Assembly: GCA_964510165.1 (NCBI GenBank) | Contig: CAZEBC010000015.1 | Span: forward strand, 18,664 to 39,005 | DNA length: 20,342 nt | Direction: 5' to 3' | Source: an uncultured bacterium | GTDB lineage: Bacteria > Abyssobacteria > SURF-5 | Part shown: one piece after another, positions 6,088 to 20,342 of the stretch | Numbering within the stretch: position 1 is the stretch's first letter | How the letters are laid out: each line of letters starts with the position of its first letter | Program-made: the position numbers and the translations under genes | Notes under the pieces: generated by a model | What the model was told of the DNA's origin: nothing | Database searches by the model: none | What the model saw: the letters and a program-made list of their open reading frames with translations, nothing else

Positions 6088-6138
6088 CGCGTAAACAAGA
6101 GTGTGAATCACGGACAGATTCAAAAGGGGGGTATCCGT

Positions 6139-7896
6139 ATGAAGCGCGTGTTGTTGACCAATCCTTACGGTCCGTACGATCTTCAATGGGGTGAGAATCA
6201 GTTCGACATCCTGAGTTCGCGCTTGCAGCGCGGGCAGGGGCCGTTCTCGCTGAAGTCATACACGCCGTGCCTGGCGTTGTATCTGATTGCGGAGAACCTG
6301 AACGCGCAGAGCACGGTCATGGAATTTCCGCATATCGAGGATTACGTTGAAGAACTCAAGAAGGGCTATGATTACGTCGGCATCCAGGTGATCTCGATGT
6401 CTATCAACAAGGTTGCTCGGATGGTGAAGATCACGAAGGAGGTTGCGCCACGGACCAAGATAGTGATTGGGGGCTACGGGGTGCTCCAGCTTTATGATCC
6501 GCCGCCGGGCGAGAAAAGCGGCGACGGCGAATACATCTTGAAGAACGCGGACCACATCTGCCAGGAAGAGGGCGTTCGGTTCATGCGAAAGCTGCTTGGC
6601 GATGAGCCTGTGGACCGGCCGATAACACAGAAGTATCTTCCGCTGAACGAGAGCCATTTCCCGGGGGCCGAGAGCTTCTCCTATTCGGCCAAGTCGATGG
6701 CGGCAATGGCGCTGGTAGCGCTGGGGTGTCCGAACGGGTGCGAGTTCTGCTGCACATCGGCGATGTTCAAGAAGCAGAAATTCTACGTGGCATCGCCGGA
6801 AGAGACGTTTGGCATACTGAAGCATTACTGTCGCCGCAACGGCGGCCAGGCGACGACCGTTTCGTTGCTGGATGAGGACCTGCTGCTCAACGCGGAGTAT
6901 GTGCGGAGCCTCGGGAAACTGATCCAGCAGGACAGGGAGTATGGGCTTCGTAAGCTGAGCTATTTCTGTTTCAGCGACCTGCGTTCGCTGACGCAGTTCA
7001 GCATGGAGGAACTGCTCGAGTTCGGCGTGGACTCGGTGTGGGTGGGCGTCGAATCGAGCTTCAACGATGTCATCACGTCCTCGCACAAGATAGAGAAGCG
7101 CACGTGCGACGATGTGAAGGCGACGCTGCATGGGCTGGCGCAATACGGAATCGGCACGACAGCCTCGACAGTGCTCGGCTGGGATTTCCACACGAAGGAC
7201 AACATCGTGGAGGATATCGACTACTTTGTCGGCCTGGCGCCGGCGGCGTACCAGATAACATTCCTGACCGCGTGTCCGGGCACCGAGTTATACAAGAGGA
7301 TGAAGGAGACGGGCCGGCTGAACCCGAACCTGACATACCAGGACATTCAGCAATGCAATCCCGGCACGCACAAGCTTGAGAATTTCGAGTTCGGCGAGTT
7401 GAAGCAGTATTTCGATCTTGCGCATAAGAAATTGTACGAGACAAACGGACCGGGCATCTTCCGCAGTTTCCAGATCAATCTCAACGGTTACGAGACGTGC
7501 AAGAATTCGCGCCGTCCTCTCTTGAGAGAGGAGAAGGCGCCGTTCTTTGCCGAGCGATGCCAGAGGACGTATCCGATATTGGAGGCGGTCGCAACGTATG
7601 CGCCCAGCGAGACGGTGCGGGAAAAGGTCCGGGCGGCCGAGGAGAAATATCGCAGTTTGTTCGGCGAGCCCACGGACGCGCAGATGCTGTTCAGCAAGGG
7701 CTTCCTCAATCTTGTGGAGCAACGAATCGAGAAGATGAACGAACCGCGTTCGCTGGAGCCCTTCGACCCTCCGATAAGGCGGATGTATTACAGTCCGGCG
7801 TGGCCGACCCCGAAGGTCAAACACGGGCGCGAGGCTGGCGAGCCGGTTCCCTATGTGATATTTGATGAGGCCGAGCCGGCATCGGCGGCGTGTTAA
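6139..7896 (+). CDS. Cobalamin-binding-domain radical SAM protein
   Basis: 585 aa from ATG at 6139 after an AAAGGGGG RBS; CxxxCxxC motif GCPNGCEFC; N-terminal B12-binding-like segment (YDYVGI...KIVIGGYG); LTACPGTELYKRM motif near the barrel end. Confidence 0.88.
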   Translation: MKRVLLTNPYGPYDLQWGENQFDILSSRLQRGQGPFSLKSYTPCLALYLIAENLNAQSTVMEFPHIEDYVEELKKGYDYVGIQVISMSINKVARMVKITKEVAPRTKIVIGGYGVLQLYDPPPGEKSGDGEYILKNADHICQEEGVRFMRKLLGDEPVDRPITQKYLPLNESHFPGAESFSYSAKSMAAMALVALGCPNGCEFCCTSAMFKKQKFYVASPEETFGILKHYCRRNGGQATTVSLLDEDLLLNAEYVRSLGKLIQQDREYGLRKLSYFCFSDLRSLTQFSMEELLEFGVDSVWVGVESSFNDVITSSHKIEKRTCDDVKATLHGLAQYGIGTTASTVLGWDFHTKDNIVEDIDYFVGLAPAAYQITFLTACPGTELYKRMKETGRLNPNLTYQDIQQCNPGTHKLENFEFGELKQYFDLAHKKLYETNGPGIFRSFQINLNGYETCKNSRRPLLREEKAPFFAERCQRTYPILEAVATYAPSETVREKVRAAEEKYRSLFGEPTDAQMLFSKGFLNLVEQRIEKMNEPRSLEPFDPPIRRMYYSPAWPTPKVKHGREAGEPVPYVIFDEAEPASAAC

Positions 7897-7905
7897 GGCA
7901 GAGAC

Positions 7906-8511
7906 ATGGCGCGAACACGAGCGGCTGAAATCGCGCGAGAGATTACCAGGAGAGAGCTTCTGGGCGCGGCGCTCGCCGTGTTTGTCGAGAAAGGTTATCC
8001 GGCGGCCACGATTTCGGATATCGTTGGGGCCGCCGGCGTGACCCAGGGAACGTTTTACCTCTATTTCAAGAACAAGGCCGACATCTTTTCGGCCATCCTC
8101 CAGGAATATCGGCATCTCATTATCTCGGGCCTGTTCGACGTGGACCTGAATTCGGTCAGGACCGCCGAGGACTGGCTTCGGATGGCAGACCGGATCGCCG
8201 GGTTCATTATCCTCCACATCAAGACGCATGGCGACTTCATACGCCTGTTCATGGCGGAGGCGGCGACCATAGGGTCCGGCTTTCTTGATGAGGCGAATGC
8301 CTTTTCGGCGGGGATCACGCAAGAAATCAGCAGACTCCTCCGCCACGGCATGAACATGAAGCTGCTCCGCGAGATAGATGTGGATGCCGCGGCCGTGGCA
8401 AGTATGGGCGCGCTCAAAGAAGCGATCCACCGGTGCTTCTTCGGGTCGAGAGACCCGCATGACATAATCCCGCGCGTCGTCCGCAGCCAGGCTCAATTGT
8501 TGTTGAAGTGA
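7906..8511 (+). CDS. TetR/AcrR family transcriptional regulator
   Basis: 201 aa; HTH signature AALAVFVEKGYPAATISDIVGAAGVTQGTFYLYFKNKADIF. Confidence 0.95.
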   Translation: MARTRAAEIAREITRRELLGAALAVFVEKGYPAATISDIVGAAGVTQGTFYLYFKNKADIFSAILQEYRHLIISGLFDVDLNSVRTAEDWLRMADRIAGFIILHIKTHGDFIRLFMAEAATIGSGFLDEANAFSAGITQEISRLLRHGMNMKLLREIDVDAAAVASMGALKEAIHRCFFGSRDPHDIIPRVVRSQAQLLLK

Positions 8512-8797: not shown

Positions 8798-8813
8798 TGG
8801 CAGGCATGTTGCA
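8798..8813 (+). promoter_or_regulatory. Sigma54 (RpoN) -24/-12 promoter
   Basis: TGGCAGGCATGTTGCA: GG-N10-GC spacing, one mismatch to TGGCACG-N4-TTGCW, about 57 nt upstream of the 8870 start. Confidence 0.8.
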
Positions 8814-8869: not shown

Positions 8870-9610
8870 ATGCACCTGCTTCTGGCCATCCTGACATTCG
8901 CGATACTTATTGGTGTGAGTCTCCTGTCTGAGTTTCTCAAGAAACGGACCTTTTCGAAGGCAGCCTTTGAGGCGGCAGTGTTGCCGGATCATTCGATAAG
9001 CGAGGGGATGACGGCTTCTCCGCCGACTATAGCCGTACTTCCTTCGGGCGAAGATGGGCGTCGGGTGGAGGGTTACATCCTCCCTGAATCGCTTTATTAC
9101 CACCAGGGGCATTCGTGGGTTGCTCCCCAGGGGGAGGAAACCGCGCTGGTCGGGATGGACGAATTCGCGTGCAAGCTGATCGGCCGCCCGACCTCGATAG
9201 TTGTTCCTAAGGTGGGCGAAACGTTTCGACAGGGAGAGAAGGGGTGGATGGTCAAGCGAGGGGACAAGGCTGCGAACATGGTGTTTCCGCTTGACGGCAA
9301 GGTGGTCGCGGTAAATGAAGCAGCGCTGAGGCATCCGGAGCTTATGACAAGCGAGCCGTACGGGCGGGGATGGTTGTTTATGGTGAAGACCAGGAGCCTG
9401 AGGTGGAACGTGCGGAATCTTCTCAGGGGCGCGGTCGCGCGGCGGTGGATGGAGGAGTCGGCGGCGGAGCTGAGGGCTTTATTCGACGGAAAGATCGGAT
9501 ATGTGTTTCAGGACGGCGGTTTGCCTGAGGAAGGGGTGGCCGACCGTTTGGGGGCGGCACAATGGCGCGAACTGGCTCGGCGCGTGTTTCTGGTCGAGCC
9601 GAAGGATTAA
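8870..9610 (+). CDS. Membrane-anchored glycine cleavage H-protein-like protein 1 (no canonical lipoyl Lys)
   Basis: 246 aa; N-terminal hydrophobic helix; H-protein motifs LYYHQGHSWV, VGMDEFA, PLDGKVVAVNE, SEPYGRGWLF; C-terminal FQDGG extension. Confidence 0.88.
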   Translation: MHLLLAILTFAILIGVSLLSEFLKKRTFSKAAFEAAVLPDHSISEGMTASPPTIAVLPSGEDGRRVEGYILPESLYYHQGHSWVAPQGEETALVGMDEFACKLIGRPTSIVVPKVGETFRQGEKGWMVKRGDKAANMVFPLDGKVVAVNEAALRHPELMTSEPYGRGWLFMVKTRSLRWNVRNLLRGAVARRWMEESAAELRALFDGKIGYVFQDGGLPEEGVADRLGAAQWRELARRVFLVEPKD

Positions 9611-9642
9611 TACGAGGCTTCTGAACAAAGGAGAATACGAAA

Positions 9643-10374
9643 ATGATTCCGGTAGCCCTGCCATTCGCGATTCTGGTGGTCACGTTCCTGGTCCTTGTTC
9701 TTGTGTCATTGGGGGTTTTGCTGGGATCAAACTACCTGCTTGGATTGATCGGGCTGAGGACGAAGGAGGCGGCTGAAAAGGGAGCGCTCGCCGGACCGGC
9801 CGTGTCTCGGGTCGAGGGTTACAGTCTTCCCGAACACCTGTTCTATCACGCCGGGCACACATGGGTTTGCCCGCAGGGACTGGATATGGCGCTGGTCGGG
9901 GTGGATGAGTTTGCCGGAAAACTGATTGGCCGCCCGACTTTTGTTTCGATCCCGCAAGTAGGACAGCGAGTGATGGAGGGCCAGAGAGGATGGACCTTGC
10001 ATCGAAAGGGAAGAGACCTCGATATCCGGATGCCTATGGATGGAGAGGTCATAGCCCTTAACGAGGAGGCGCTCCGAAATCCCGACCTCCTGGCGAGAGA
10101 CCCGTACGGCAAGGGTTGGCTCGCGATGGTGCGGGTAAGAGACGTGAGGCGGGGTCTGTCGGGCCTGCTCAGCGGCGCGGCTGCGCGTGACTGGATGGAG
10201 CGTTCGGCGGCCGAGCTGCGGTCAATATTCAGCGGCAGATTCGGGCTTGTGTTTCAGGACGGCGGCTTGCCGCAGGAAGACCTGGCCGAGCATGTCGGCG
10301 TGGAAGAATGGGACACGCTTGTGGACCGCTTCTTCCCGAGCGCTTCAAAAAGCATGAAACAAAACGCCCTGTAA
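9643..10374 (+). CDS. Membrane-anchored glycine cleavage H-protein-like protein 2 (no canonical lipoyl Lys)
   Basis: 243 aa; AGGAG RBS; N-terminal TM; LFYHAGHTWV, VGVDEFA, PMDGEVIALNE, DPYGKGWL, FQDGG; clear paralog of the preceding gene. Confidence 0.88.
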   Translation: MIPVALPFAILVVTFLVLVLVSLGVLLGSNYLLGLIGLRTKEAAEKGALAGPAVSRVEGYSLPEHLFYHAGHTWVCPQGLDMALVGVDEFAGKLIGRPTFVSIPQVGQRVMEGQRGWTLHRKGRDLDIRMPMDGEVIALNEEALRNPDLLARDPYGKGWLAMVRVRDVRRGLSGLLSGAAARDWMERSAAELRSIFSGRFGLVFQDGGLPQEDLAEHVGVEEWDTLVDRFFPSASKSMKQNAL

Positions 10375-10406
10375 CAAACAACCTGATGAAAGGAGAGGTA
10401 CACGAG

Positions 10407-11114
10407 ATGGTTCCCGTCGCAATCGCGGGGATAGCGTTGGCGTTCATTGTGGTGGACGTGGCGATCCAGTTCATACAGCACAGGCGCGGCAAGGTGGTGT
10501 ATGGCTTCTTCCTACCGGACCCGCCCGAGGCGCATTCGGCGCAGCCGGCGAATTACGGCAGGATGCTCGAATGTCTGAGAGGGTTCGGCATCGCGCCCGC
10601 GCAGAACGTGTTTGTTCACGCGGGCCACACCTGGGCCGCCATCGAGGAAAGCGGTCAGGCGGCGATTGGCATGGACGCGTTTGCGCGGAATGCGATTGGC
10701 AGGATCAACGAGGTCACACTTCCCCGCGTGGGCCAGAAGGTCCGCCAGGGGGAGCGGCTGTTTTCGGTGCGGCAGGGCGGCCGCATCGCGGAGTTCGTGT
10801 CGCCGATTAACGGCACTGTCACTGCATTGAACGAGTCGCCGAAGAGTCAAAGCGCCGGGTCGGCCTGGCTGTGCAAGGTCAACCCGAGCAACCTCGCCAA
10901 GGATGTCAAGGCTCTTCGGATCGCCGAAAACGCGGTGAAATGGATGTACGGCGAGTTGTTCAGATTGCATGAACTGGTGGCCGGCCAGATACCCAGGCTG
11001 GAGACGGTCGGGGCAACCATGCAGGACGGCGCGGTTGCTCTGGATAATCTGCTCGAGTCTCTCGACGACGACGCCTGGAAGCTTTTCCGAGAACAATTTC
11101 TCCAGAATTCCTGA
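10407..11114 (+). CDS. Membrane-anchored glycine cleavage H-protein-like protein 3 (no canonical lipoyl Lys)
   Basis: 235 aa from ATG at 10407 after AGGAGAGG; N-terminal TM; FVHAGHTWA, IGMDAFA, SPINGTVTALNE, MQDGA; lacks the DPYG segment. Confidence 0.85.
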   Translation: MVPVAIAGIALAFIVVDVAIQFIQHRRGKVVYGFFLPDPPEAHSAQPANYGRMLECLRGFGIAPAQNVFVHAGHTWAAIEESGQAAIGMDAFARNAIGRINEVTLPRVGQKVRQGERLFSVRQGGRIAEFVSPINGTVTALNESPKSQSAGSAWLCKVNPSNLAKDVKALRIAENAVKWMYGELFRLHELVAGQIPRLETVGATMQDGAVALDNLLESLDDDAWKLFREQFLQNS

Positions 11115-11132
11115 TCCATCGGAGGTACAAGA

Positions 11133-11942
11133 ATGAGCAAGGGAATGTTGATAGATACTACCATGTGCATCGGGTGCCTGTCGTGTGAAGTGGCGTGCTC
11201 CGAGAAGAACCAGTTGGGAGAGTGCGACGAGTCGGACCTGTCGGCATGCAAGTTCACGAAGGTGTTCGAGCGGGGCGATTATTATGTCAGAAAGATGTGC
11301 ATGCATTGCAAAGAGCCGGCGTGCGCATCGGTGTGTCCCGTCGGCGCGCTGACCAAGCTGGAGGAAGGCCCGGTCATTTACGATGAGAAGAAATGCATCG
11401 GATGCAGGTACTGCATGCAGGCGTGCCCCTTCCAGATACCTACGTATGAATGGGCCAGCGCGCTTCCGCGCGTGAGGAAATGCTGGTTCTGTTATGACCG
11501 CGTGCTTGTAGGCGAGCAGCCGGCCTGCGCCGAGGTCTGCCCGACCGGCGCGACCATGTTCGGGGACCGCGCCTCGCTGCTGGTCGAGGCCAGGAGGAGA
11601 ATCAAAGAAAACCCGGGCCAATACCATGACCACATCTTTGGGGAGCGCGAGGTGGGAGGCACCTCGATGTTATTCCTCTCGGCCGTCCCGTTTGACCAAA
11701 TCGGTTTCAAGTCGAACCTTATCGAGAAGCCGCTGCCGCTTCTCACCTGGAACGTGCTTTCGAAGATACCCGATTTCGTGCTGGTGGGCGGCACGCTGCT
11801 CGGAGGGGTGGCGTGGGTGATCAACCGCCGCATGCAGCTTGAGGACGAGAGGATACGCGAGGCCGAGGAGCGCCGGATGAACGGCCTTGAGCCTCCGAAG
11901 AAAGGGTTGGCGCGCTTGTTTGAGCGGATCAGGAAAGGTTAA
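11133..11942 (+). CDS. HybA/FdnH/HmcB-like 4x[4Fe-4S] electron-transfer subunit with C-terminal TM helix
   Basis: 269 aa; four Cys groups CIGCLSCEVAC, CMHCKEPACASVC, CIGCRYCMQAC, CWFC...PACAEVC; HIFGEREVGGTS motif; C-terminal hydrophobic helix; GGAGG RBS. Confidence 0.92.
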   Translation: MSKGMLIDTTMCIGCLSCEVACSEKNQLGECDESDLSACKFTKVFERGDYYVRKMCMHCKEPACASVCPVGALTKLEEGPVIYDEKKCIGCRYCMQACPFQIPTYEWASALPRVRKCWFCYDRVLVGEQPACAEVCPTGATMFGDRASLLVEARRRIKENPGQYHDHIFGEREVGGTSMLFLSAVPFDQIGFKSNLIEKPLPLLTWNVLSKIPDFVLVGGTLLGGVAWVINRRMQLEDERIREAEERRMNGLEPPKKGLARLFERIRKG

Positions 11943-11944
11943 TC

Positions 11945-13192
11945 ATGGCTCTGCCGATGGCCATCAAGAATAGAAAGGTTGACGCAATGAACCGAAAATG
12001 GATTCCCAAGATAACGTTCTGGAGAGTTGTCTTCGCAATGATCTTCGTGATGGGACTCTATGTGACGTACATCAGGCTTTTCAAGGGACTTGGCGCATCG
12101 ACCGCGCTGAGCGACAAATTCCCGTGGGGGCTGTGGGTTGGATTCGACGTGTTGTGTGGAGTCGGCCTGGCGGCGGGCGGCTTCACGATAACATTGGCCG
12201 TGCATGTATTCAACCTGAAGAAATACAAGCCGATCCTTCCCTCGACGGTGCTGAGCGCGTTTCTGGGTTATAATCTTGTGAGCGCGGGACTCATGTACGA
12301 CATCGGGAGGCCGTACCGGATATGGCATCCGCTGATTTTCTGGAACCATCATTCGGTGATGTTCGAGGTTGCGTGGTGCGTGATGCTGTATACGAGTGTG
12401 CTCGCGCTGGAGTTCAGCCCGATGGTGTTGAAAAGGCTGAACTGGGAAAAGCCGCTCCGGATAGTGAAGGCGATTACGATCCCACTGGTGATTGTGGGCT
12501 TTATCCTTTCGACACTGCACCAGTCATCGCTCGGGACGGTGTTTCTCATCGCTCCCGGCAGGCTGCATCAATTGTGGTATACTCCGATTCTGCCGCTGAT
12601 GTTCTTCACGTCGGCGATTGCGGCGGGTCTCTCGATGGTGATTGTCGAGTCCTACCTGAGCCGGCGCGCGTTTCAGAAGCGGCTTGAGTTGGACCTTCTT
12701 AGCGGGGTGGGGCGCGCACTCGTGGTGGCGCTCGCAGTGTACCTCGTTCTGAAGTTGAAGGACTTATACAATAGGGATGCATTCGGGCTGCTGTTCAACG
12801 GCAGCCATGAGAGCGGAATGTTTCTGGTCGAACTGGGTCTCGGAGTCGCGGCGCCTTTGGGGCTCCTGGCCACTCGGCGCGTTCGCGAGAGCCAGGCCGG
12901 CCTGTTCATCTCGGCGCTGATGGTTGCGCTCGGGTTTGTTGTCAACCGGCTCAACGTGAGCATTACCGGCATGATGCGCTCGTCAGGAGTCGTCTATTTC
13001 CCGTCGTGGATGGAGATAGGGGTCACCATGTTCCTGGTGGCGATGGGATTTGCGTTCTTCGCGCTTGCGGTGAAATATCTGCCGATCTTCCCCGAGGAAA
13101 AGGCGACCGAGGAGCCGGCGGCGGAAACCCTGAGGTATCTGGCCCCCGCACGCCGGGCCGCGGGTGACGAGGGCGAGCTTCAGGCGTCGTAG
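11945..13192 (+). CDS. hybB: NrfD/PsrC-family integral membrane subunit, HybB/HmcC-like
   Basis: 415 aa; LSDKFPWGLWVGFDVLCGVGLAAGGF, DIGRPYRIWHP, SVMFEVAWCV, LSTLHQSSLG, NRLNVSITG, YFPSWME. The symbol reflects family similarity only; no hydrogenase subunits are adjacent. Start may be 11987. Confidence 0.88.
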   Translation: MALPMAIKNRKVDAMNRKWIPKITFWRVVFAMIFVMGLYVTYIRLFKGLGASTALSDKFPWGLWVGFDVLCGVGLAAGGFTITLAVHVFNLKKYKPILPSTVLSAFLGYNLVSAGLMYDIGRPYRIWHPLIFWNHHSVMFEVAWCVMLYTSVLALEFSPMVLKRLNWEKPLRIVKAITIPLVIVGFILSTLHQSSLGTVFLIAPGRLHQLWYTPILPLMFFTSAIAAGLSMVIVESYLSRRAFQKRLELDLLSGVGRALVVALAVYLVLKLKDLYNRDAFGLLFNGSHESGMFLVELGLGVAAPLGLLATRRVRESQAGLFISALMVALGFVVNRLNVSITGMMRSSGVVYFPSWMEIGVTMFLVAMGFAFFALAVKYLPIFPEEKATEEPAAETLRYLAPARRAAGDEGELQAS

Positions 13193-13229
13193 GGCGGTTA
13201 TGTGGAGCGTCAATAGCACCGAATTCACC

Positions 13230-13309
13230 CCCCTCACCCTGCCCTCTCCCACTGGGAAAGGTAAACACGAGTACGCCCTCTCCCGCTGGGAGAGGGTTGG
13301 GGTGAGGGA
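13230..13309 (-). repeat. BoxC-like composite palindromic element, copy 2 (inverted relative to copy 1)
   Basis: Reverse complement aligns to 2221-2301 with about 9 differences by manual alignment. Confidence 0.85.
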
Positions 13310-13345
13310 CAAGAACACGATAAAACGAAGAAATACAGAACTTGC

Positions 13346-13488: not shown

Positions 13489-15138
13489 GTGAACCCAGTC
13501 AAGAGATTGTTCAGCGTTTCCAGCAGTTTGGCGGTCAAGCTCATCATGTGTGTGGTGGGCAGCGTCGTGATCATATTCGGGGTGTTCGGCTACATCAACA
13601 TAGAGAACAGCCGGGAACACCTCGAGGGTCTGGTGCTGACGAGCGCACAGGGTGTCGGCGACATCGTCAAGAGGAGCACCCGGCTCTCGATGCTGAAGAA
13701 CCGTCGTGATGAACTCTATCATATGATCAACCAGATAGGAAACGAGCCGGGCATACACAAGATCCGGATTCTGAATAAAGAGGGCAAGATCACGTTCTCG
13801 ACGGACGAGGCCGAAGTGAACACGTATGTGGACAAGAAGGGTGAAGCCTGCTATGCGTGTCATACGCGGCAGCAGCCGCTGGAGAAGCTTTCCCGTCCCG
13901 ACCGCGCAAGGATATACAGGGTGAATGGCGAGCGGTTGCTTGGGCTTATCCAGCCGATCGAGAACGAACCGGACTGCTATACGGCTCCCTGTCACGTGCA
14001 TCCGGAGTCCAAGACGGTGCTCGGGGTTTTCGACATCAATCTTTCGCTCGCGAAGGTGGACGAGAGCATCGGCGAGTATCAGCGGAATTACGTGATGAAC
14101 CTGCTCGTCGTGATGGTCGCCGTCTCGATTGTTTCGGCGGCGTTCGTGTGGCTGATGATTTACGGGCCAGTCAAGAAGCTGATCACGGGCACCAAGCGAA
14201 TCGCGATGGGCGACATGGATTACCGGATCGACACGAAATCGTCGGACGAACTGGGATTGCTGGCCGTTTCCTTCAACAAGATGACGAGCGATCTGAAGAA
14301 GGCGCAGGACGAAATCACGGAATGGACGAAAACGCTTGAAGACCGCGTGGCCCACAAGACCGAGGAGCTGCAGAAAGCCAACGATCTGATACTCCAGGCG
14401 GAGAAGCTGGCGTCGGTGGGAAGGCTGGCGGCGGTAGTGGCGCACGAACTGAACAACCCGCTCGCGGGAATCGTCGCGTACTCCAAGCTGCTGCTCAAAC
14501 GGATGGACAGAAACAGCTTTTCGGAGAACGGATATGAGAAGAGCAGGGAAATCACTTCGATGATCATGAGCGAGGCGCTTCGCTGCGGCGAGATCGTAAA
14601 GAACCTGCTTCAGTTCTCGCGGCAGTCAGACGTGGTGCTTGCGCCAAACGATATCTGCGCCATCATCCGTGATTCGACCCGGCTGATTGAACACCTGGTG
14701 ACCCTCCGGAGCATAGACCTGCAGCTTGACCTTGACGAGGGAATACCGCTTGTGCACTGCGACGCTCAAAAGATCAAGCAGGTCTTGCTCGCGCTGCTCA
14801 TAAACGCCTGTGATGCGATAGCGGACGAGGGTCTGCTCAGGATCGGCTGCCGCCGTCTGGCGTCCTCGAACGGCGTGGAAATCACGGTACAGGACAACGG
14901 GGTTGGGATGGACGAAGACACGATGCGGCATATCTTCGAGCCGTTCTTCACGACGAAGGAAGAAGGCAGCGGAGTGGGCCTGGGCCTTTCCGTCGCCCAC
15001 TCGATAATCAAGCGGCACGGCGGCACGATATCGGTTCGAAGCACCGTGAATGAAGGCGCCGCGTTCACGATTCTGCTGCCGGTGACTCCGCGCGTGTTCA
15101 ATGACGAGATGCCGACAAAGGAGCATGTGAGCTTCTGA
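13489..15138 (+). CDS. HAMP-domain sensor histidine kinase with periplasmic c-type heme motifs
   Basis: 549 aa, GTG start; two TM helices around a sensor domain with CYACH and CYTAPCH; HAMP (DELGLLAVSFNKM); H-box AHELNNPL; N, G1 (DNGVGM), F (FEPFFTTK) and G2 (GVGLGLS) boxes. Confidence 0.93.
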   Translation: MNPVKRLFSVSSSLAVKLIMCVVGSVVIIFGVFGYINIENSREHLEGLVLTSAQGVGDIVKRSTRLSMLKNRRDELYHMINQIGNEPGIHKIRILNKEGKITFSTDEAEVNTYVDKKGEACYACHTRQQPLEKLSRPDRARIYRVNGERLLGLIQPIENEPDCYTAPCHVHPESKTVLGVFDINLSLAKVDESIGEYQRNYVMNLLVVMVAVSIVSAAFVWLMIYGPVKKLITGTKRIAMGDMDYRIDTKSSDELGLLAVSFNKMTSDLKKAQDEITEWTKTLEDRVAHKTEELQKANDLILQAEKLASVGRLAAVVAHELNNPLAGIVAYSKLLLKRMDRNSFSENGYEKSREITSMIMSEALRCGEIVKNLLQFSRQSDVVLAPNDICAIIRDSTRLIEHLVTLRSIDLQLDLDEGIPLVHCDAQKIKQVLLALLINACDAIADEGLLRIGCRRLASSNGVEITVQDNGVGMDEDTMRHIFEPFFTTKEEGSGVGLGLSVAHSIIKRHGGTISVRSTVNEGAAFTILLPVTPRVFNDEMPTKEHVSF

Positions 15139-15139
15139 T

Positions 15140-16522
15140 ATGAAGTGCGCTGATAGAAAAACCAAGGGGGCAAATCGTGTGCGAATGAATTCGGGCCTAA
15201 AAAACGGCAAGCCGGCAAAGACTGTAATCGCGTGTGTGATGCTGTTGCTGGTCTCGGCGGGCGTATGGGCGTCCGAACAGGCGGTGGACAACCAGGCGTG
15301 CATTGATTGTCACGGGGACAAGAGAAAAGTCAGCAAGCAGTTCAGCTTCATCGATCCGGCGGTCATCTCCGAGTCGGTACATGCCGAGACGCTGTGCATG
15401 GATTGTCATTCCGACGCGAAGCTGACCGAGGCGGATGAGCAGGGAATCCCGCACAGGAAGGATTTGGGCGAGGTCAACTGCTCTCAGTGTCATTACAGAG
15501 GAAATGGCGAGGGCGCTCCCAATTTCAGCCCGATGCAGGAATACAAGACGAGCGTCCACGGGCGCGCCTCGCTGGAGCGGGGGGACCGCGACGTAGCGAC
15601 GTGTTCCGCGTGCCACGGCAAGCATAACATCAGGCCAGCGTCGGACCCGCAGTCCACTATCTATCGCGCCAATATCCCGAGCACGTGCGCGGTGTGCCAC
15701 GACAACATGCAGATGATCCTCAAGCACAATATCCACGCGGAGCAGCCGTACAGGGAATATGAGCAGAGCGTACATGGAAAGGCGCTGTTCAAGGACGGCC
15801 TTGTGACGCTGGCGGCGGTGTGCACCGATTGTCACGGCGTGCACGACATCCAGCCGAACGGGTCCGAGGACCTCAAGCCGCATCAGCCGGGCACGTGCGG
15901 CAGGTGCCATCTGGAAGAGTACAACGCGTACAGCCGGAGCATTCACGGAACCGCTTTCAAGGATGGAATAATGGATGCGCCTTCATGCTCAGACTGTCAC
16001 GGCGAGCATAAGATCGCCGCTCCGTGGAACCCCGATTCCAGCGTTTCGGCGCTGCACGTGGCAAACACGTGCGCGGGCTGTCATGACGACCTTACCAAGA
16101 TGAGCAAGTACAACATCCTGACCAACAAGGTGTCCACGTACAGGAAAAGCGACCACGGCGTGAGCAAAGACCTCGGCATCGTGTCGGTGGCCACGTGCGT
16201 GAGCTGTCATGGGTATCACGTGATACTGCCGGCCAACGACCCGCGCTCCTCGATCCACCCAGTGAATCTGGCGAAGACGTGCGGAGAGCCCATCTGTCAT
16301 CCGGGCGCGCCAAAGGAGCTGTTGCAGTCCAAGATTCATGTGGACACTGCCACTGCCGATTTCAAGAACCTGCAGCGCATACGAACCGTCGCGATCTGGT
16401 CGCTTGCAGCGATGGCGGCGATGGCGGTCGTCACGGGCGTGGGGCTTTTCGTCTCGCGCGTGGGGAAGTGCTTTTTCGGAGCTGCATCCAACGGGAGCGC
16501 GGACGATTCGGAGAATGAATGA
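15140..16522 (+). CDS. Multiheme cytochrome c (10 CxxCH + 1 CX4CH), signal peptide and C-terminal TM anchor
   Basis: CIDCH, CMDCH, CSQCH, CSACH, CAVCH, CTDCH, CGRCH, CSDCH, CAGCH, CVSCH and CGEPICH; repeated Y..S.HG modules; signal peptide ending VWA. True start may be 15179 or 15185. Confidence 0.92.
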   Translation: MKCADRKTKGANRVRMNSGLKNGKPAKTVIACVMLLLVSAGVWASEQAVDNQACIDCHGDKRKVSKQFSFIDPAVISESVHAETLCMDCHSDAKLTEADEQGIPHRKDLGEVNCSQCHYRGNGEGAPNFSPMQEYKTSVHGRASLERGDRDVATCSACHGKHNIRPASDPQSTIYRANIPSTCAVCHDNMQMILKHNIHAEQPYREYEQSVHGKALFKDGLVTLAAVCTDCHGVHDIQPNGSEDLKPHQPGTCGRCHLEEYNAYSRSIHGTAFKDGIMDAPSCSDCHGEHKIAAPWNPDSSVSALHVANTCAGCHDDLTKMSKYNILTNKVSTYRKSDHGVSKDLGIVSVATCVSCHGYHVILPANDPRSSIHPVNLAKTCGEPICHPGAPKELLQSKIHVDTATADFKNLQRIRTVAIWSLAAMAAMAVVTGVGLFVSRVGKCFFGAASNGSADDSENE

Positions 16523-16558: not shown

Positions 16559-17194
16559 ATGAGCACATTGCAGAAGCGTAAAAACTCAGCGCAGGCGCTG
16601 GCCATCTTCCTGGCCGGATTCGTCGTCTTTCATATCACCGGACGCACGGTGGTGCCCGCGCTGATGCACACTAAGAGCAGGCAGCCGGTGGAATTCAGCC
16701 ATATGATACATGGAAGGGACGTCGGGATATCGTGCGAGACGTGCCACTTCTTTTACGAGGATGGCAGTTGGTCGGGAATTCCGACGCTCGAGGTCTGTTC
16801 CAACTGCCATGCCGAGGTATTGGGGGAATCGGAGGCCGAACAGCATTTCGTGACGAACTACATCAAGGAGAACAAGGACGTGAAATGGGGCCTCTATTTC
16901 CGGCAACCCCAATGCGTTTCCTTCTCGCATTCATCGCATGTGAAAGGCGCCAAGCTCGCATGTGAGACCTGCCACGGACCGCAGGGCCTCTCCGGGCGTG
17001 AGACGCGGTATCTGACCAATCGAATTACGCAGTACAGTTACGTCATCTACGATGGGGAGACCTCGAATAATCCCGGTCCCAAGGGCGCCGCGAAGACTGA
17101 GAAGAAGACATGGGGAACCATGGGAATGGACGAGTGCGCGCAATGTCATCGGGCCAGAGGGACAAGCACCGCGTGTTTCATATGTCACAAGTAG
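16559..17194 (+). CDS. qrcA: Quinone reductase complex multiheme cytochrome c subunit (QrcA/ActA-like, 5 hemes)
   Basis: 211 aa; N-terminal TM, QPVEFSH, five CxxCH (CETCH, CSNCH, CETCH, CAQCH, CFICHK at the C-terminus), QPQCVSFSH; followed by qrcB- and qrcC-like genes. Confidence 0.88.
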   Translation: MSTLQKRKNSAQALAIFLAGFVVFHITGRTVVPALMHTKSRQPVEFSHMIHGRDVGISCETCHFFYEDGSWSGIPTLEVCSNCHAEVLGESEAEQHFVTNYIKENKDVKWGLYFRQPQCVSFSHSSHVKGAKLACETCHGPQGLSGRETRYLTNRITQYSYVIYDGETSNNPGPKGAAKTEKKTWGTMGMDECAQCHRARGTSTACFICHK

Positions 17195-17242
17195 GGGCGT
17201 CCCTGTGTGGGCGCCCGGGCGGCCACGCAGGGCCGTCCCTAC
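17191..17242. repeat. Inverted dimer of GTAG-tagged REP sequences (REPIN-like)
   Basis: GTAGGGGCGTCCCTGTGTGGGCGCCC (17191-17216) followed directly by the reverse complement of GTAGGGACGGCCCTGCGTGGCCGCCC (17217-17242). Confidence 0.85.
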
Positions 17243-17283
17243 AACAAAAAGGCGAATTGGCGACACCAGGAGAAGGGTCATAA

Positions 17284-19665
17284 ATGAAGGTTGATAGAAG
17301 GCAATTCATCAGAGCGCTGACATTCGCCGGAGGCGGAGCGCTCGGCTTTATGACATCGCCCGCCCCCTGGCATCTGGTCAGAGACCTTGCCAGGTGGACC
17401 CAGAACTGGCCATGGGTTCCCGTGCCGCCTCATGGCAAGCCGTCGCATCTCAACGGCATCTGCGGGATGTGCGACGGCGGATGCGGGGTTACCGTACGAA
17501 AAGTGGATGACCGACTGGTGGGAATCGAAGGCAACAAGAAGCATCCGGTCAACCGCGGCCTGATGTGCCCGCACGGCACTGCGGGTTTGCAGATGGTCTA
17601 TGGGCCTTCCCGCGTGAGAGAACCGCTGAAACGCACGGGCACGAAGCAGGAGCCGAAGTGGGAACCGGTCACCTGGGAGCAGGCCATCAACGAGGTGATC
17701 GGCAAGATACGGGGACTCCGCTCGGGAGCGAAATCACATGCGCTTGCCTGCATCACGAACAACTGCGATAGCACTGTCAATCTGCTTCTTGAACGGTTTC
17801 TGCAGGCGGTCGGATCGCGCAACTTCATGAAGATGAATTCCGGCAGAGACGCCCGCGACGTTGTGGCGCGGCTCATGCAGGGGACGGGCGGGAATCTGGC
17901 GTACGATTTTGAGAGGACAAATCTGATACTCAGCTTCGGTTGTTCGCTTCTCGATGGATGGGGCTCCTGCACGAGGATGCTCGGCGCATATACGGGATGG
18001 ACGACCGGAGCCGATGAAAGTCGGACGCAGATAATTCAATTCGAGCCGAATCTCTCCGTCACCGCCACAAAGGCGTCCCAGTGGGTTCCGATTAAGCCCG
18101 GTTCGGAAGGCGCCCTGGCGCTCGGATTGGCCCATGTCCTCATAAGGGACGGGCTTTACGATGGGGAGTTCGTCAGCGAGTATTGCTTCGGATTTGAAGA
18201 TTGGACGGATAAGGACGGAACGAGGCGAAAGGGATTCAAGTCCCTCGTGCTCGCCGATTACTCGCCTTTGGCCGTTGAGAAGATGACGGCGGTGGAGGCC
18301 CACCAGATCGAGAAGCTGGCGAAAGAGTTCGCGGCGCACAGGCCTTCGCTGGCAGTCGCGGGAGGCGGCACGGGCGAACTGTTCAACGACCTGTATGAGT
18401 TGATGGCGATTCACAGCCTGAATGCGCTGGTTGGAAACCTCAACAAGCCGGGCGGGGTGTTCATCAAACCCGATCCGCCGCTGACGCCGTTGCCGCCCGT
18501 CATAATGGACGAGGAGGCCGAGCGCGGGTTCGCGGTCGGAAGGGCGGACGGAGCCGGGAGCGAAGCTTATCCATTTTCGCCGTATTTGCCGTGCAATCTG
18601 AATCCAGATGAGATCGAGGTTCTTCTCGTGCATGAGGTGAATCCGCGTTACTCACTTCCCGACAGCGAGACGGCGAATAAGATATTCGAGCGTGTACCTT
18701 ATATAGTGAGCTTCTCCTCGTACATGGACGAGAGCGCGGCAATGGCCGACCTTGTGCTTCCGATACCGACGCGTTACGAGAGATGGGACGATCAGATTGC
18801 CTCGCCCGAATCGCCGTTCCCGGTTTACAATCTCACTCGACCGCTCGCGGAGCCGGTCTACCAGACGAAACCGGCGGGCGAAATCATTATCCAGATGGCC
18901 GGCCGGTTGGGCGGCTCAATTGGCGAATCGTTCCCGTGGGCCGACATGCAGGAACTGCTCAAAGTTCGGGCAAGGGGACTCTATGAATCTGGCCGGGGAG
19001 TGATTGACACGTCGGAGGCTCTCGTGGCGACGGACAGGAGACCGCCACCCGTGATGACATACAGCTCATTCGTCGCGATGTGGGAGAAACTCGTCGAGAA
19101 CAATTGCTGGTTCGATCCGAACCCGGAGTATGCAGACCTCAAGAGGGAGATAGCGACGCCAAGCCGCAGATTCGAGTTTTATAGCAGGCGACTGAAGGAA
19201 GCGTTCGGGTTCCAGAACGATGTTGACTGCATGCCGCATTACGTTGGGCCGCCGGCCAATCCGGAGGGGTTTGACCTTCTGATCATGCCCGAGGTCATGC
19301 TCGTCGTTGCCGATGATGGAAAGCCCACGCCGCCGTTCCTTATGAAACAGATAGACGACGATGTGCTCGAGAGAGACAGGCTGTTCGTGCAGATCAATCC
19401 GATAACTGCGATGTACAGGGGCCTAAAGGACGGCGACGACGTCATCGTGGAGACCCCCCGCGGAAAAGTGAAGGCGGGTCTGCGCACGTTCGAGGGCGTG
19501 CGCGAAGGCGTGGTGTTGATACCGCTCGGTTTCGGCCACACGGCGTATGATGAATTTCTGCGGGGCAAAGGAGTCAATGCGCATGACATCCTCGAGGCGA
19601 GGAAGGACAGGCTCAGCGGATTGCCGGTCTGGTGGTCAACGCCCGGCAAATTAAGCAAGGCATGA
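17284..19665 (+). CDS. qrcB: Quinone reductase complex molybdopterin-oxidoreductase-like subunit (QrcB)
   Basis: 793 aa; Tat motif DRRQFI; QrcB-typical SPAPW...RWTQNWPWVP; CGMCDGGC...C motif; DMSO-reductase-family motifs PIKPGSEGALALGLAHVLI, ESAAMADLVLP, GFGH. Confidence 0.88.
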   Translation: MKVDRRQFIRALTFAGGGALGFMTSPAPWHLVRDLARWTQNWPWVPVPPHGKPSHLNGICGMCDGGCGVTVRKVDDRLVGIEGNKKHPVNRGLMCPHGTAGLQMVYGPSRVREPLKRTGTKQEPKWEPVTWEQAINEVIGKIRGLRSGAKSHALACITNNCDSTVNLLLERFLQAVGSRNFMKMNSGRDARDVVARLMQGTGGNLAYDFERTNLILSFGCSLLDGWGSCTRMLGAYTGWTTGADESRTQIIQFEPNLSVTATKASQWVPIKPGSEGALALGLAHVLIRDGLYDGEFVSEYCFGFEDWTDKDGTRRKGFKSLVLADYSPLAVEKMTAVEAHQIEKLAKEFAAHRPSLAVAGGGTGELFNDLYELMAIHSLNALVGNLNKPGGVFIKPDPPLTPLPPVIMDEEAERGFAVGRADGAGSEAYPFSPYLPCNLNPDEIEVLLVHEVNPRYSLPDSETANKIFERVPYIVSFSSYMDESAAMADLVLPIPTRYERWDDQIASPESPFPVYNLTRPLAEPVYQTKPAGEIIIQMAGRLGGSIGESFPWADMQELLKVRARGLYESGRGVIDTSEALVATDRRPPPVMTYSSFVAMWEKLVENNCWFDPNPEYADLKREIATPSRRFEFYSRRLKEAFGFQNDVDCMPHYVGPPANPEGFDLLIMPEVMLVVADDGKPTPPFLMKQIDDDVLERDRLFVQINPITAMYRGLKDGDDVIVETPRGKVKAGLRTFEGVREGVVLIPLGFGHTAYDEFLRGKGVNAHDILEARKDRLSGLPVWWSTPGKLSKA

Positions 19666-19672
19666 GGAGCGT

Positions 19673-20342
19673 ATGGAGAAGTCTGACCGAGTGAAGCCGA
19701 TTCGTTACGGCATGGTGATAGATGTGGACAAGTGCACCGGCTGCGGGAACTGCGCGGTGGCGTGTCATATGGAGAACAATGTCGCCGTCATGAAGGACGA
19801 GAGCGACAAGTCGCGCAACATGGCTTGGCTCCGCGTGTACAAGGTGACTAATGGAGCGCCCTATCCAAACGTGCGCATGGCCTACTTCGCGCGGCCGTGC
19901 ATGCAGTGCGACCGTCACACGCCGTGCGTGTCGGTGTGTCCCGCCAGCGCGACCAACTATGACAAGGAAACCGGCCTCGTGGACCAGATAAACACCCGCT
20001 GCATCGGATGCCGGTATTGCATGGCGGCGTGTCCGTATATGGTTCGGTGCTTCAACTGGTGGGACCCGGTGTGGCCCGGCGACATGGAAAAGTATCTGAA
20101 TCCTGATGTCGCCCCCCGCATGCGAGGGGTGGTGGAGAAGTGCACGTTTTGCTCGCATAGATACATCAAGGCGAAAAACCTCGCGCATCAGGAAGGCCGC
20201 AGCGTTCTGAGGAAAGGGGAATACGTGCCGGCATGCGTCGAGGCGTGTCCGGTAGGCGCAATGCACTTCGGCGATCTGAATGACCCGGAATATGAAGTGC
20301 ACGCCCTGGCGAAGGGGCCCCGCGCATTCAGGCTGCTCGAGA
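19673..20342 (+). CDS. qrcC: Quinone reductase complex iron-sulfur subunit (QrcC), truncated by the right window edge
   Basis: Manual translation from ATG 19673 (GAGGAG RBS): RYGMVIDVDKCTGCGNCAVACHMENN, RPCMQC..TPCVSVCP, RCIGCRYCMAACPY..RCFNWWDPVWP, PRMRGVVEKCTFC, PACVEACP. Confidence 0.92.
   Translation, partial: MEKSDRVKPIRYGMVIDVDKCTGCGNCAVACHMENNVAVMKDESDKSRNMAWLRVYKVTNGAPYPNVRMAYFARPCMQCDRHTPCVSVCPASATNYDKETGLVDQINTRCIGCRYCMAACPYMVRCFNWWDPVWPGDMEKYLNPDVAPRMRGVVEKCTFCSHRYIKAKNLAHQEGRSVLRKGEYVPACVEACPVGAMHFGDLNDPEYEVHALAKGPRAFRLLE

Follow-up and report, generated by a model that had tools for sequence, protein, structure and literature searches.

A 20,342-nucleotide stretch of DNA from an uncultured bacterium of the lineage SURF-5 in the Abyssobacteria (contig CAZEBC010000015.1 of assembly GCA_964510165.1; hereafter termed the window) encodes three tandem proteins, H1, H2 and H3, that adopt the fold of the glycine cleavage system (GCS) H protein GcvH and lack its lipoyl lysine. 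Each is tied to the membrane by an N-terminal transmembrane (TM) helix, and their genes are followed by those for an iron-sulfur (FeS) protein, an NrfD-family membrane subunit and a histidine kinase with conserved periplasmic heme motifs. We propose that H1 to H3 are cytoplasm-facing, membrane-anchored adaptors in a two-component cassette that would sense the redox state of the quinone pool. A signaling role for the H domain seems probable from the sequences and models described below, and the entire chain from quinone pool to gene expression has, in our judgment, about an even chance of being correct.

The cassette is real and is built from known parts, and it is apparently undescribed. A literature search with thin coverage of subscription papers found neither the cassette nor TM-anchored H proteins without the lipoyl lysine described. 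Likewise, the words ‘glycine’ and ‘kinase’ do not occur in a review of NrfD-containing complexes (PMC8076601).

H1 to H3 share the GcvH fold and lack the lipoyl lysine

The genes for H1 (8870..9610, 246 amino acids, TM helix at residues 1-19), H2 (9643..10374, 243 amino acids) and H3 (10407..11114) lie on the plus strand with 32 nucleotides between each pair. For H3, the longest open reading frame (ORF) begins at position 10308 and overlaps H2, and the alternative ATG at 10407, preceded by the ribosome-binding-like sequence AGGAGAGG, yields a protein of 235 amino acids. The FeS and NrfD genes follow on the same strand after gaps of 18 and 2 nucleotides, and these short distances suggest that all five genes are co-transcribed.

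The Pfam model GCV_H detects H1, H2 and H3 above its cut-off (E values of 4.6e-20, 2.7e-17 and 3.2e-15, respectively). All three fall short of the curated GcvH models, with 73, 69 and 52 bits for TIGR00527 (cut-off 115.85) and scores of 80, 77 and 52 for PRK01202 (cut-off 117). Models for the chlamydial GcvH-like proteins (TIGR03077, at most 35 bits versus a cut-off of 144) and for GcvH_rel_desulf (NF045810, at most 31 versus 150) were not matched either. An AlphaFold2 model of H2, built from a 43-row alignment (mean pLDDT 87.9), predicts an H barrel flanked by a long N-terminal helix and a C-terminal extension that is also helical. This model closely resembles solved H proteins, as evident by matches to 1onl (Foldseek, E value 8.4e-14, root-mean-square deviation (rmsd) 1.5) and to 1dxm (VIA-align, Z 18.6, rmsd 1.5 over 131 residues). 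When the entire H2 model served as the query, the aligned region comprised just the barrel and the helix at the N terminus, and the C-terminal extension, here called the QDGG tail, lay outside the match. A search of the ESM Atlas returned GCV_H clusters only.

Compared with GcvH (1onl, 1dxm) and LbpA, the H proteins of the cassette share the barrel-sandwich fold over ~125-130 residues at 26-31% identity and an rmsd of ~1.5 Å. They differ in that they lack the lipoyl lysine, add a TM anchor at the N terminus and a helical tail of ~50 residues at the other end, and have no gcvT or gcvP neighbors. The lipoyl lysine is an invariant residue of GcvH and LbpA, according to a published study (10.64898/2026.10.01.755906). 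When H1, H2 and H3 are aligned to the canonical GcvH of the same genome, this column is occupied by D, G and G, respectively, and across the family alignment lysine is present there in five of 132 rows and the ES.K motif in none. These residues support the proposal, made in an initial annotation of the window, that the H-protein fold has been repurposed in a non-lipoyl form.

The opposite view is that H1 to H3 are ordinary lipoylated H proteins (of the GcvH, LbpA or GcvH-L type) or remnants of such proteins in the course of decay. The fold is indeed the same, and both H1 and H2 carry a lysine one residue away from the lipoyl column. However, the column itself lacks lysine, the ES.K motif is missing and the scores lie below the GcvH cut-offs. 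Moreover, a complete gcvT-H-PA-PB-lipB locus resides elsewhere in the genome, and the H cluster has been kept with intact frames in seven of 11 genomes of the phylum, as six triplets and one pair. The family is also large, comprising 1142 clusters at E<=1e-30 in a wider profile search, among which canonical GcvH may be included. This view is largely refuted by the sequences, and we regard it as extremely improbable.

The QDGG tail is well conserved among the 132 aligned rows, most prominently at W184 (114 rows), D206 (127), G207 (124), G208 (124) and W223 (113). Two polar residues that are absent from canonical GcvH are nearly invariant within the H domain of the family, namely H69 (127/132) and D88 (125/132). 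The single hydrophobic helix of each H protein is preceded by no K or R residues and is followed by three or four within the next 20 positions. A K/R excess after the TM helix is seen in 114 of the 119 TM-bearing members among 129 examined, and this charge distribution suggests that the H domains face the cytoplasm. The initial description of three tandem ORFs with a GcvH fold, an N-terminal TM helix and a shared C-terminal tail is borne out, and all three frames are intact.

H1 and H2 are 54% identical over 176 amino acids, and H3 is 28-32% identical to either. In a FastTree phylogeny of 179 H domains (27 dropped; deep nodes weak), H1 and H2 form one clade with a support of 1.0. H3, a divergent paralog, falls within a pre-FeS class (support 0.85) that also holds a TM-receiver-H fusion. 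H2 is therefore a local, lineage-specific duplicate of H1, which rules out triplication as a general feature of the family.

H genes recur with a redox pair and a two-component system, and not with GCS genes

Gene linkage was examined in 80 loci, the top-ranking ones among at least 589 confirmed matches, a set that leans toward an HmcD-type subtype because the query was a narrower, HmcD-type H alignment. Within these 80 loci, the H gene is accompanied by genes for the FeS protein (71), the NrfD protein (73), the heme kinase (58), a sigma-54 regulator (58) and an archaemetzincin protease (54). For the 35 loci that extend at least 19 kb, the corresponding numbers are 33, 33, 31, 34 and 32. A scan with profiles that were each built on one sequence of the GCS locus in the present genome found gcvT, gcvPA, gcvPB or lipB in none of the 80 loci, none of the 35 longer ones and none of 18 Acidobacteriota loci. 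The recurrent association with FeS/NrfD and kinase genes, and never with gcvT or gcvP, agrees with what the initial annotation anticipated. Neither the paired L1 and L2 motifs of NiFe hydrogenases nor a QrcB-like gene was found in the 80 loci, and no catalytic subunit is conserved among them.

Record titles place the family in Desulfobacterota, Acidobacteriota, Bacteroidota, Gemmatimonadota, Planctomycetota and others. Because routine annotation calls these proteins ‘glycine cleavage system H protein’, a large family appears to be mislabeled across many phyla. In an evenly drawn sample of 151 Acidobacteriota genomes, 18 (the seed genome included) carry the H family and 39 carry the heme-sensor domain. 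Among 18 non-seed Acidobacteriota loci, FeS/NrfD genes are present at 12, the heme kinase at 12, the regulator at 13 and the protease at 13. When these loci are sorted by halves of the cassette, nine have both, three have FeS/NrfD only, four have the two-component genes only and two have neither.

A sample of 201 Desulfobacterota genomes was also used, from which we drew 73 of 150 listed H matches (239 weaker ones lie beyond) and 32 of 113 heme-sensor matches. The heme sensor lies within 15 kb of the H gene for 17 of 28 TM-type H proteins and for one of 45 of other types, among the 73 listed matches used. Twenty H loci were selected by hand, 18 of which are of the soluble type (one H ORF was missed in mapping). 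At these 18 soluble, Cys-rich loci with the QDGG tail, FeS/NrfD genes are found at none, the regulator at ten, the protease at ten and a kinase at 11 (12 if a weak hit is counted).

The FeS/NrfD pair resembles HmcB/HmcC and keeps its quinone-site residues

The FeS protein (11133..11942, plus strand, 269 amino acids) contains four 4-Cys cluster motifs that are readable directly in its sequence and a C-terminal TM helix at residues 212-230. Its neighbor, the NrfD/PsrC-family membrane subunit (11945..13192, plus strand, 415 amino acids), begins 2 nucleotides downstream. Both exceed their Pfam cut-offs (PF13247 and PF03916), and the initial report of a 4x[4Fe-4S] gene and an NrfD gene closely following H3 is thereby upheld. 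The HybA/HybB-like label given to the pair was less apt. Its best NCBIfam matches are to HmcB (NF045715, 250 bits) and HmcC (NF045714, 328 bits), whereas the HybA and HybB models yield 200 and 291 bits. All four scores are below cut-off (420 and 550 bits for HmcB and HmcC).

Membership in a HybAB system was rejected, since the pair is closer to HmcB/HmcC and a NiFe hydrogenase was not found in the genome. The large-subunit model PF00374 gave no matches in this 97%-complete genome, whereas controls were positive. The pair does share its two-subunit architecture (NrfCD/PsrBC module) and the Asp/Asp/Ser residues of the quinone site with HybA/HybB and QrcC/QrcD. It differs from HybA/HybB of hydrogenase-2 in having neither a NiFe hydrogenase in its genome nor a conserved catalytic subunit in the 80 loci.

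The resemblance to the Hmc complex of Desulfovibrio (HmcABCDEF) includes the tail-anchored FeS protein, the HybB-like membrane subunit and, below cut-off, an HmcD-like helix at the start of the H proteins of some relatives. This resemblance is limited by the sub-threshold HmcB/HmcC scores and by the lack of a twin-arginine translocation (Tat) signal on the FeS protein of the cassette. No hmcA, hmcE or hmcF gene is present in the window; an HmcF-like gene occurs in two of the 80 loci, across which HmcE was not scored. Furthermore, the six Hmc subunits listed in 10.1101/2023.11.02.564894 include no H-fold gene, heme kinase or protease.

Residues D70, D120 and S138 of QrcD belong to its quinone site and proton path (PMC13059093). 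By numbering, they correspond to D68, D119 and S137 of the NrfD protein, the published sequence itself not being part of the alignment, and these three residues share alignment columns with the QrcD of the same genome. D119 and S137 are each present in 80 of 80 aligned rows, and D68 in 69 of 80. The spacing of the published HybB residues fits in part (D58 and D109 exact; S129 and E133 shifted by two; S105 and S190 unmatched), and for this reason the argument is built on QrcD. Judged from this alignment, the quinone-site residues of the NrfD subunit are intact. The subunit forms a clade distinct from the QrcD and DsrP proteins of the same genome, and no solved structure matched it in a sequence search.

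A heme-motif kinase extends the unit

The initial annotation ended the unit after five genes, which is too short. A histidine kinase (13489..15138, plus strand) with HAMP, HisKA and HATPase domains identified by Pfam comes next, and in relatives the unit goes on to a sigma-54 activator and an archaemetzincin. The periplasmic Cache-fold domain of the kinase carries a Cx4CH motif before the last Cache strand and an additional, canonical CxxCH earlier in the sequence. C121, C124 and H125 are conserved in 58-59 of 60 rows, and C163, C168 and H169 in 51-58 of 60. Although heme motifs are conserved, heme attachment itself is predicted from them. A profile of the sensor matches the heme sensor 3b42 (E value 8.8e-6), and its structural model matches WalK and 3b42. 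The kinase scores 20.9 bits with PF21563 (cut-off 27), and the Cache fold is present in the model.

This sensor resembles the sCache_heme sensor proteins (GSU0582 and GSU0935; PMC12889525) in its periplasmic Cache fold, Cys-His heme motifs, HAMP domain and signaling output. It differs in having both a CxxCH and a Cx2-4CH motif, in its score below the PF21563 cut-off and in residing in a cassette with a quinone module.

The likeness to these Geobacter heme sensors suggests another explanation, in which the two-component system responds to nitric oxide (NO) or another gas and receives no quinone-redox input. The FeS/NrfD pair would then be an effector under its regulation, and kinase activity would be modulated by the H proteins. 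A signal-fused sCache_heme domain binds NO tightly (PMC12889525). However, the protein characterized there is a single Pseudomonas HAMP receptor, the kinase sensor carries two Cys-His motifs rather than one, and no recurrent NO-detoxifying gene family was found among the clustered neighbors. We consider a gas-responsive system of this kind very unlikely.

The kinase gene is followed by a decaheme cytochrome c (15140..16522, plus strand) with ten CxxCH motifs and a C-terminal hydrophobic stretch, and by qrcA, qrcB and the start of qrcC (16559..20342, plus strand; NF041781 and NF041783 above cut-off). The notion that no redox partner is nearby was thereby ruled out. The cytochrome is retained in relatives within the phylum, yet it is not a universal member of the cassette, given that multiheme ORFs of any kind occur in 17 of the 80 loci. 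Qrc genes at the position after the cytochrome are found in three genomes only (this one, G004 and G010), and in three phylum relatives (G007, G008 and G009) the cytochrome is followed by the sigma-54 regulator and then by the archaemetzincin.

The best-scoring regulator and protease genes of the present genome lie behind a cytochrome on another contig (C107). This cytochrome is a 69% identical orthologue of one that follows qrcD in two phylum relatives, and therefore contig C107 probably continues this operon, a join that we predict. The unit extends past the five genes first noted to include the heme-motif kinase and, in relatives, the sigma-54 activator and the archaemetzincin, whose HExxH motif is intact in 43 of 46 sequences. 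A separate hydrophobic ORF of ~68 amino acids follows qrcD at the contig end (C15, beyond 40362).

A sigma-54-type -24/-12 motif (8798..8813, plus strand), ~57 nucleotides ahead of H1, is the sole match in the window to the sigma-54 consensus, and it represents a putative promoter. One match arises in 13 of 100 shuffles of the window, and a similar site lies upstream in three of seven phylum loci, the window included. A scan for sigma-70 promoters and terminators gave nothing decisive.

The H domain is retained apart from the redox pair

H domains also occur outside the FeS/NrfD context. The QDGG-tailed form stays with the two-component and protease genes at the soluble loci described above, and loci without FeS/NrfD genes include TM-anchored copies as well (L178 and L179). 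Domain fusions include receiver-H (P0149), cytochrome c-TM-H (P0151 and P0205), tandem H-H (P0124), Cys-rich-H, TM-receiver-H (L047) and periplasmic binding protein-TM-H (L094, PF12849). Two Bacteroidota proteins (L088:6153-7835 and L094:6029-7810) have a receptor-like order, in which a TM helix joins a large domain in the periplasm (PBP_like_2 in L094) to an H domain with the QDGG tail in the cytoplasm.

In the present genome, the heme-sensor profile finds exactly two kinases, and both adjoin a lipoyl-less H fold. The second is encoded after dsrMKJOP and before a receiver-H fusion without the QDGG tail (G000:C8:27638-36548, L037), and the same order is seen in G004. Therefore, the arrangement may bear on the regulation of sulfate-respiration genes.

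The initial annotation had offered scaffold, ligand-binding or regulatory roles within a quinone-reactive membrane complex. The regulatory option fits best, because the H domain with its QDGG tail is kept where FeS/NrfD genes are absent and occurs in fusions with receiver domains and with sensor domains of the periplasm. A main reading of these proteins as simple subunits of a HybAB-like membrane complex is not supported.

The main rival to a sensory role, and the one nearest to the view of the initial annotation, gives the H proteins a structural or assembly function as subunits of a respiratory complex that is small and Hmc-like. The TM helix would fill the role of HmcD, electrons would pass between quinone and the cytochromes, Qrc or a partner encoded elsewhere, and the two-component genes would regulate transcription only. 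The H genes directly adjoin the FeS/NrfD genes in most membrane-type loci, and electrogenic quinone reduction has been proposed for both HmcC and HybB, with the role of HmcC called uncertain (PMC6303296). The decaheme cytochrome and Qrc genes adjoin the cassette, the upstream region in G009 holds TmcC/TmcB-like genes together with a 14-heme cytochrome, and the L136 protein joins an H domain to a redox enzyme.

Relatives also carry a paralog after the NrfD gene that has an HmcD-resembling helix, echoing the hmcC-hmcD order reported in 10.1101/2023.11.02.564894. This helix was detected in six of the 13 proteins scanned, always below cut-off (NF045712, up to 33.8 versus 34 bits). However, the HmcD model is unmatched by H1 and H3 at E<=0.1 and by H2 at E<=0.001, and the TM helix of H1 is not alignable to the motif. 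Receiver and periplasmic-binding fusions would have no role in a respiratory scaffold, and the H domain with its tail remains with the kinase, regulator and protease where the FeS/NrfD pair is missing, including at the TM-anchored loci L178 and L179. In addition, the other HmcBC-like pair of this genome has no H gene, and multiheme partners occur in only 17 of the 80 loci. We judge a respiratory-subunit role unlikely, albeit deserving of serious attention.

Another possibility is that the H domain itself senses a ligand or metal, or that the archaemetzincin uses it as a substrate or adaptor in a proteolytic switch acting on the sigma-54 activator, with the kinase not a partner. Family-specific polar residues (H69, D88 and D206) are consistent with such a function, although they may be structural. 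Protease and regulator are slightly steadier neighbors than the heme kinase (32 and 34 versus 31 of the 35 longer loci; 13 and 13 versus 12 of the 18 Acidobacteriota loci), and the H gene often adjoins the protease gene in soluble cassettes. Nevertheless, H occurs with a kinase and no protease at L126, L127, L133, L135, L144, L145 and the dsr locus. A switch of this type seems quite unlikely.

A proposed sensing mechanism and its weaknesses

The sensing cassette that we favor would comprise the H paralogs, the HmcB-like FeS protein, the HmcC-like NrfD protein, the heme-Cache histidine kinase, the sigma-54 activator and the archaemetzincin. The FeS/NrfD pair would trade electrons with the menaquinone pool and, because the cassette lacks a catalytic partner, may equilibrate the c-type heme or hemes of the kinase, either directly or via a multiheme cytochrome. 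The kinase would then phosphorylate the sigma-54 activator, which in turn would act on respiratory genes and probably on this operon too. Kept beside the module by their TM helices, the H domains would bind proteins on the cytoplasmic side, likely as pairs. They may thereby tune the output of the kinase or regulator, and the protease may reset or process a component.

Recognized quinone-sensing kinases such as ArcB and RegB operate without a dedicated FeS/NrfD module. Pyruvate dehydrogenase kinase is bound by a lipoyl domain (PDB 1y8n) in an interaction that needs the lipoyl-lysine. By analogy, a kinase might read membrane redox, and a lipoyl-type fold might dock on a GHKL-family kinase. Complex prediction for the cytoplasmic dimer of the kinase with H1 (46-row alignments) scored 0.00 twice with the controls unfolded, and it speaks neither for nor against such docking.

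Several observations weigh against the sensing cassette. In the window, 11 residues precede the first cluster motif of the FeS protein, and it has no Tat signal. Such a signal is present on the FeS subunit at 44 of 76 scored loci and missing, as here, at 32, of which a few reflect mis-picked or broken ORFs. The NrfD partners of signal-less FeS proteins form a clade of 28 (support 0.998) from this lineage, Acidobacteriota and one other locus. HmcB-like, C-terminally anchored, Tat-less FeS proteins are encoded at 11133-11942 of the window and at loci L031-L036, L048 and L095-L119. Published signal-less FeS subunits hitchhike on an adjacent, Tat-bearing hydrogenase (10.1101/2023.11.02.564894). 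No Tat-bearing partner gene is conserved beside the signal-less FeS genes in the 76 scored loci, and consequently export of the FeS protein is unexplained. The missing signal hints at an exported partner encoded elsewhere. Moreover, the downstream decaheme cytochrome and QrcABCD are possible respiratory partners for the module.

The linkage has gaps as well. Three of the 18 Acidobacteriota loci carry H and FeS/NrfD genes without the two-component genes (two of them near contig ends), and two carry H without either half. A listed H gene lies within 15 kb in only 15 of the top 30 Desulfobacterota heme-sensor matches, and when 20 sensor loci were picked as lacking a listed H gene, H was present at two. 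The heme sensor is therefore widely used without H. All of these counts come from related genomes rather than independent events, and two-component genes often adjoin an operon under their control when physical coupling is absent. The sigma-54 motif is found upstream in just eight of 72 wider loci, against a background of 61 in 3000 windows. Signal-fused sCache_heme domains have been reported as NO sensors (PMC12889525), so the input to the kinase may be something other than the quinone pool. Finally, the H domain with its QDGG tail ends a 997-amino-acid cytoplasmic protein with FeS, MvhD and molybdopterin-binding domains (L136:7050-10040), and HdrA-like flavoproteins often flank soluble H cassettes, which also fits an enzyme-accessory role.

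A broader generalization is tentative, and we would sooner expect it to fail than to hold. Under this generalization, an NrfCD-type module would act as a sensory electrode that reports the state of menaquinone to a two-heme Cache kinase at the periplasmic face. The lipoate-free H fold would be a general cytoplasmic output domain of receptors, through which inputs as diverse as a membrane redox module, a receiver, a Cys-rich metal domain, cytochrome c or a periplasmic binding protein would feed a single circuit of kinase, sigma-54 activator and protease across many phyla of anaerobes. If the sensing cassette operates as proposed, the H fold would serve signal transduction without its cofactor, and a module of the NrfD family would be used in sensing rather than respiration. 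Anaerobes that lack well-studied quinone sensors would possess a route for monitoring the quinone pool. The family also hints at a function for HmcD, an unexplained small subunit.

Other loci and minor features

No H gene is present at the HmcBC-like, second Qrc and alternative-complex-III-like NrfD loci of this genome (contigs C25, C26 and C16), each named by resemblance. The first (C25:2897-7752) contains an HmcBC-like module in which HmcF-like and HmcE-like genes accompany those for an FeS protein without a signal and for an NrfD protein that carries a fused six-heme domain. The second (C26:15371-25706) holds a qrcABCD-like set, behind which lie Tmc/Hmc-like genes and one for a 14-heme cytochrome. 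The third (C16:22457-28258) is an alternative-complex-III-like cluster. At L154-L157, the heme-sensor domain is found in a kinase and also by itself, in a TM protein of ~280 amino acids, near seven- and 12-heme cytochromes and with no H gene.

Large ORFs are associated with some H domains. Frames similar in size to the L136 protein exist in two more Desulfobacterota genomes, and ORFs of 1400-1500 amino acids lie beside the soluble, Cys-rich cassettes L123, L124, L128, L129, L139 and L140, the one at L124 being an HdrA-like FAD/FeS protein. In P0140 (1391 amino acids), three GCV_H domains precede a GlcD-like FAD oxidase and a CCG/FeS domain.

Within the window, a G+C-rich, partly palindromic element lies between the NrfD and kinase genes (~13225-13310) and a similar one at ~2200-2300; these are possibly repeats resembling repetitive extragenic palindromic (REP) elements. 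Upstream of the cassette (6103-8511) are genes for a B12-binding radical SAM protein and a TetR regulator, and a similar pair precedes the cassette in G010.

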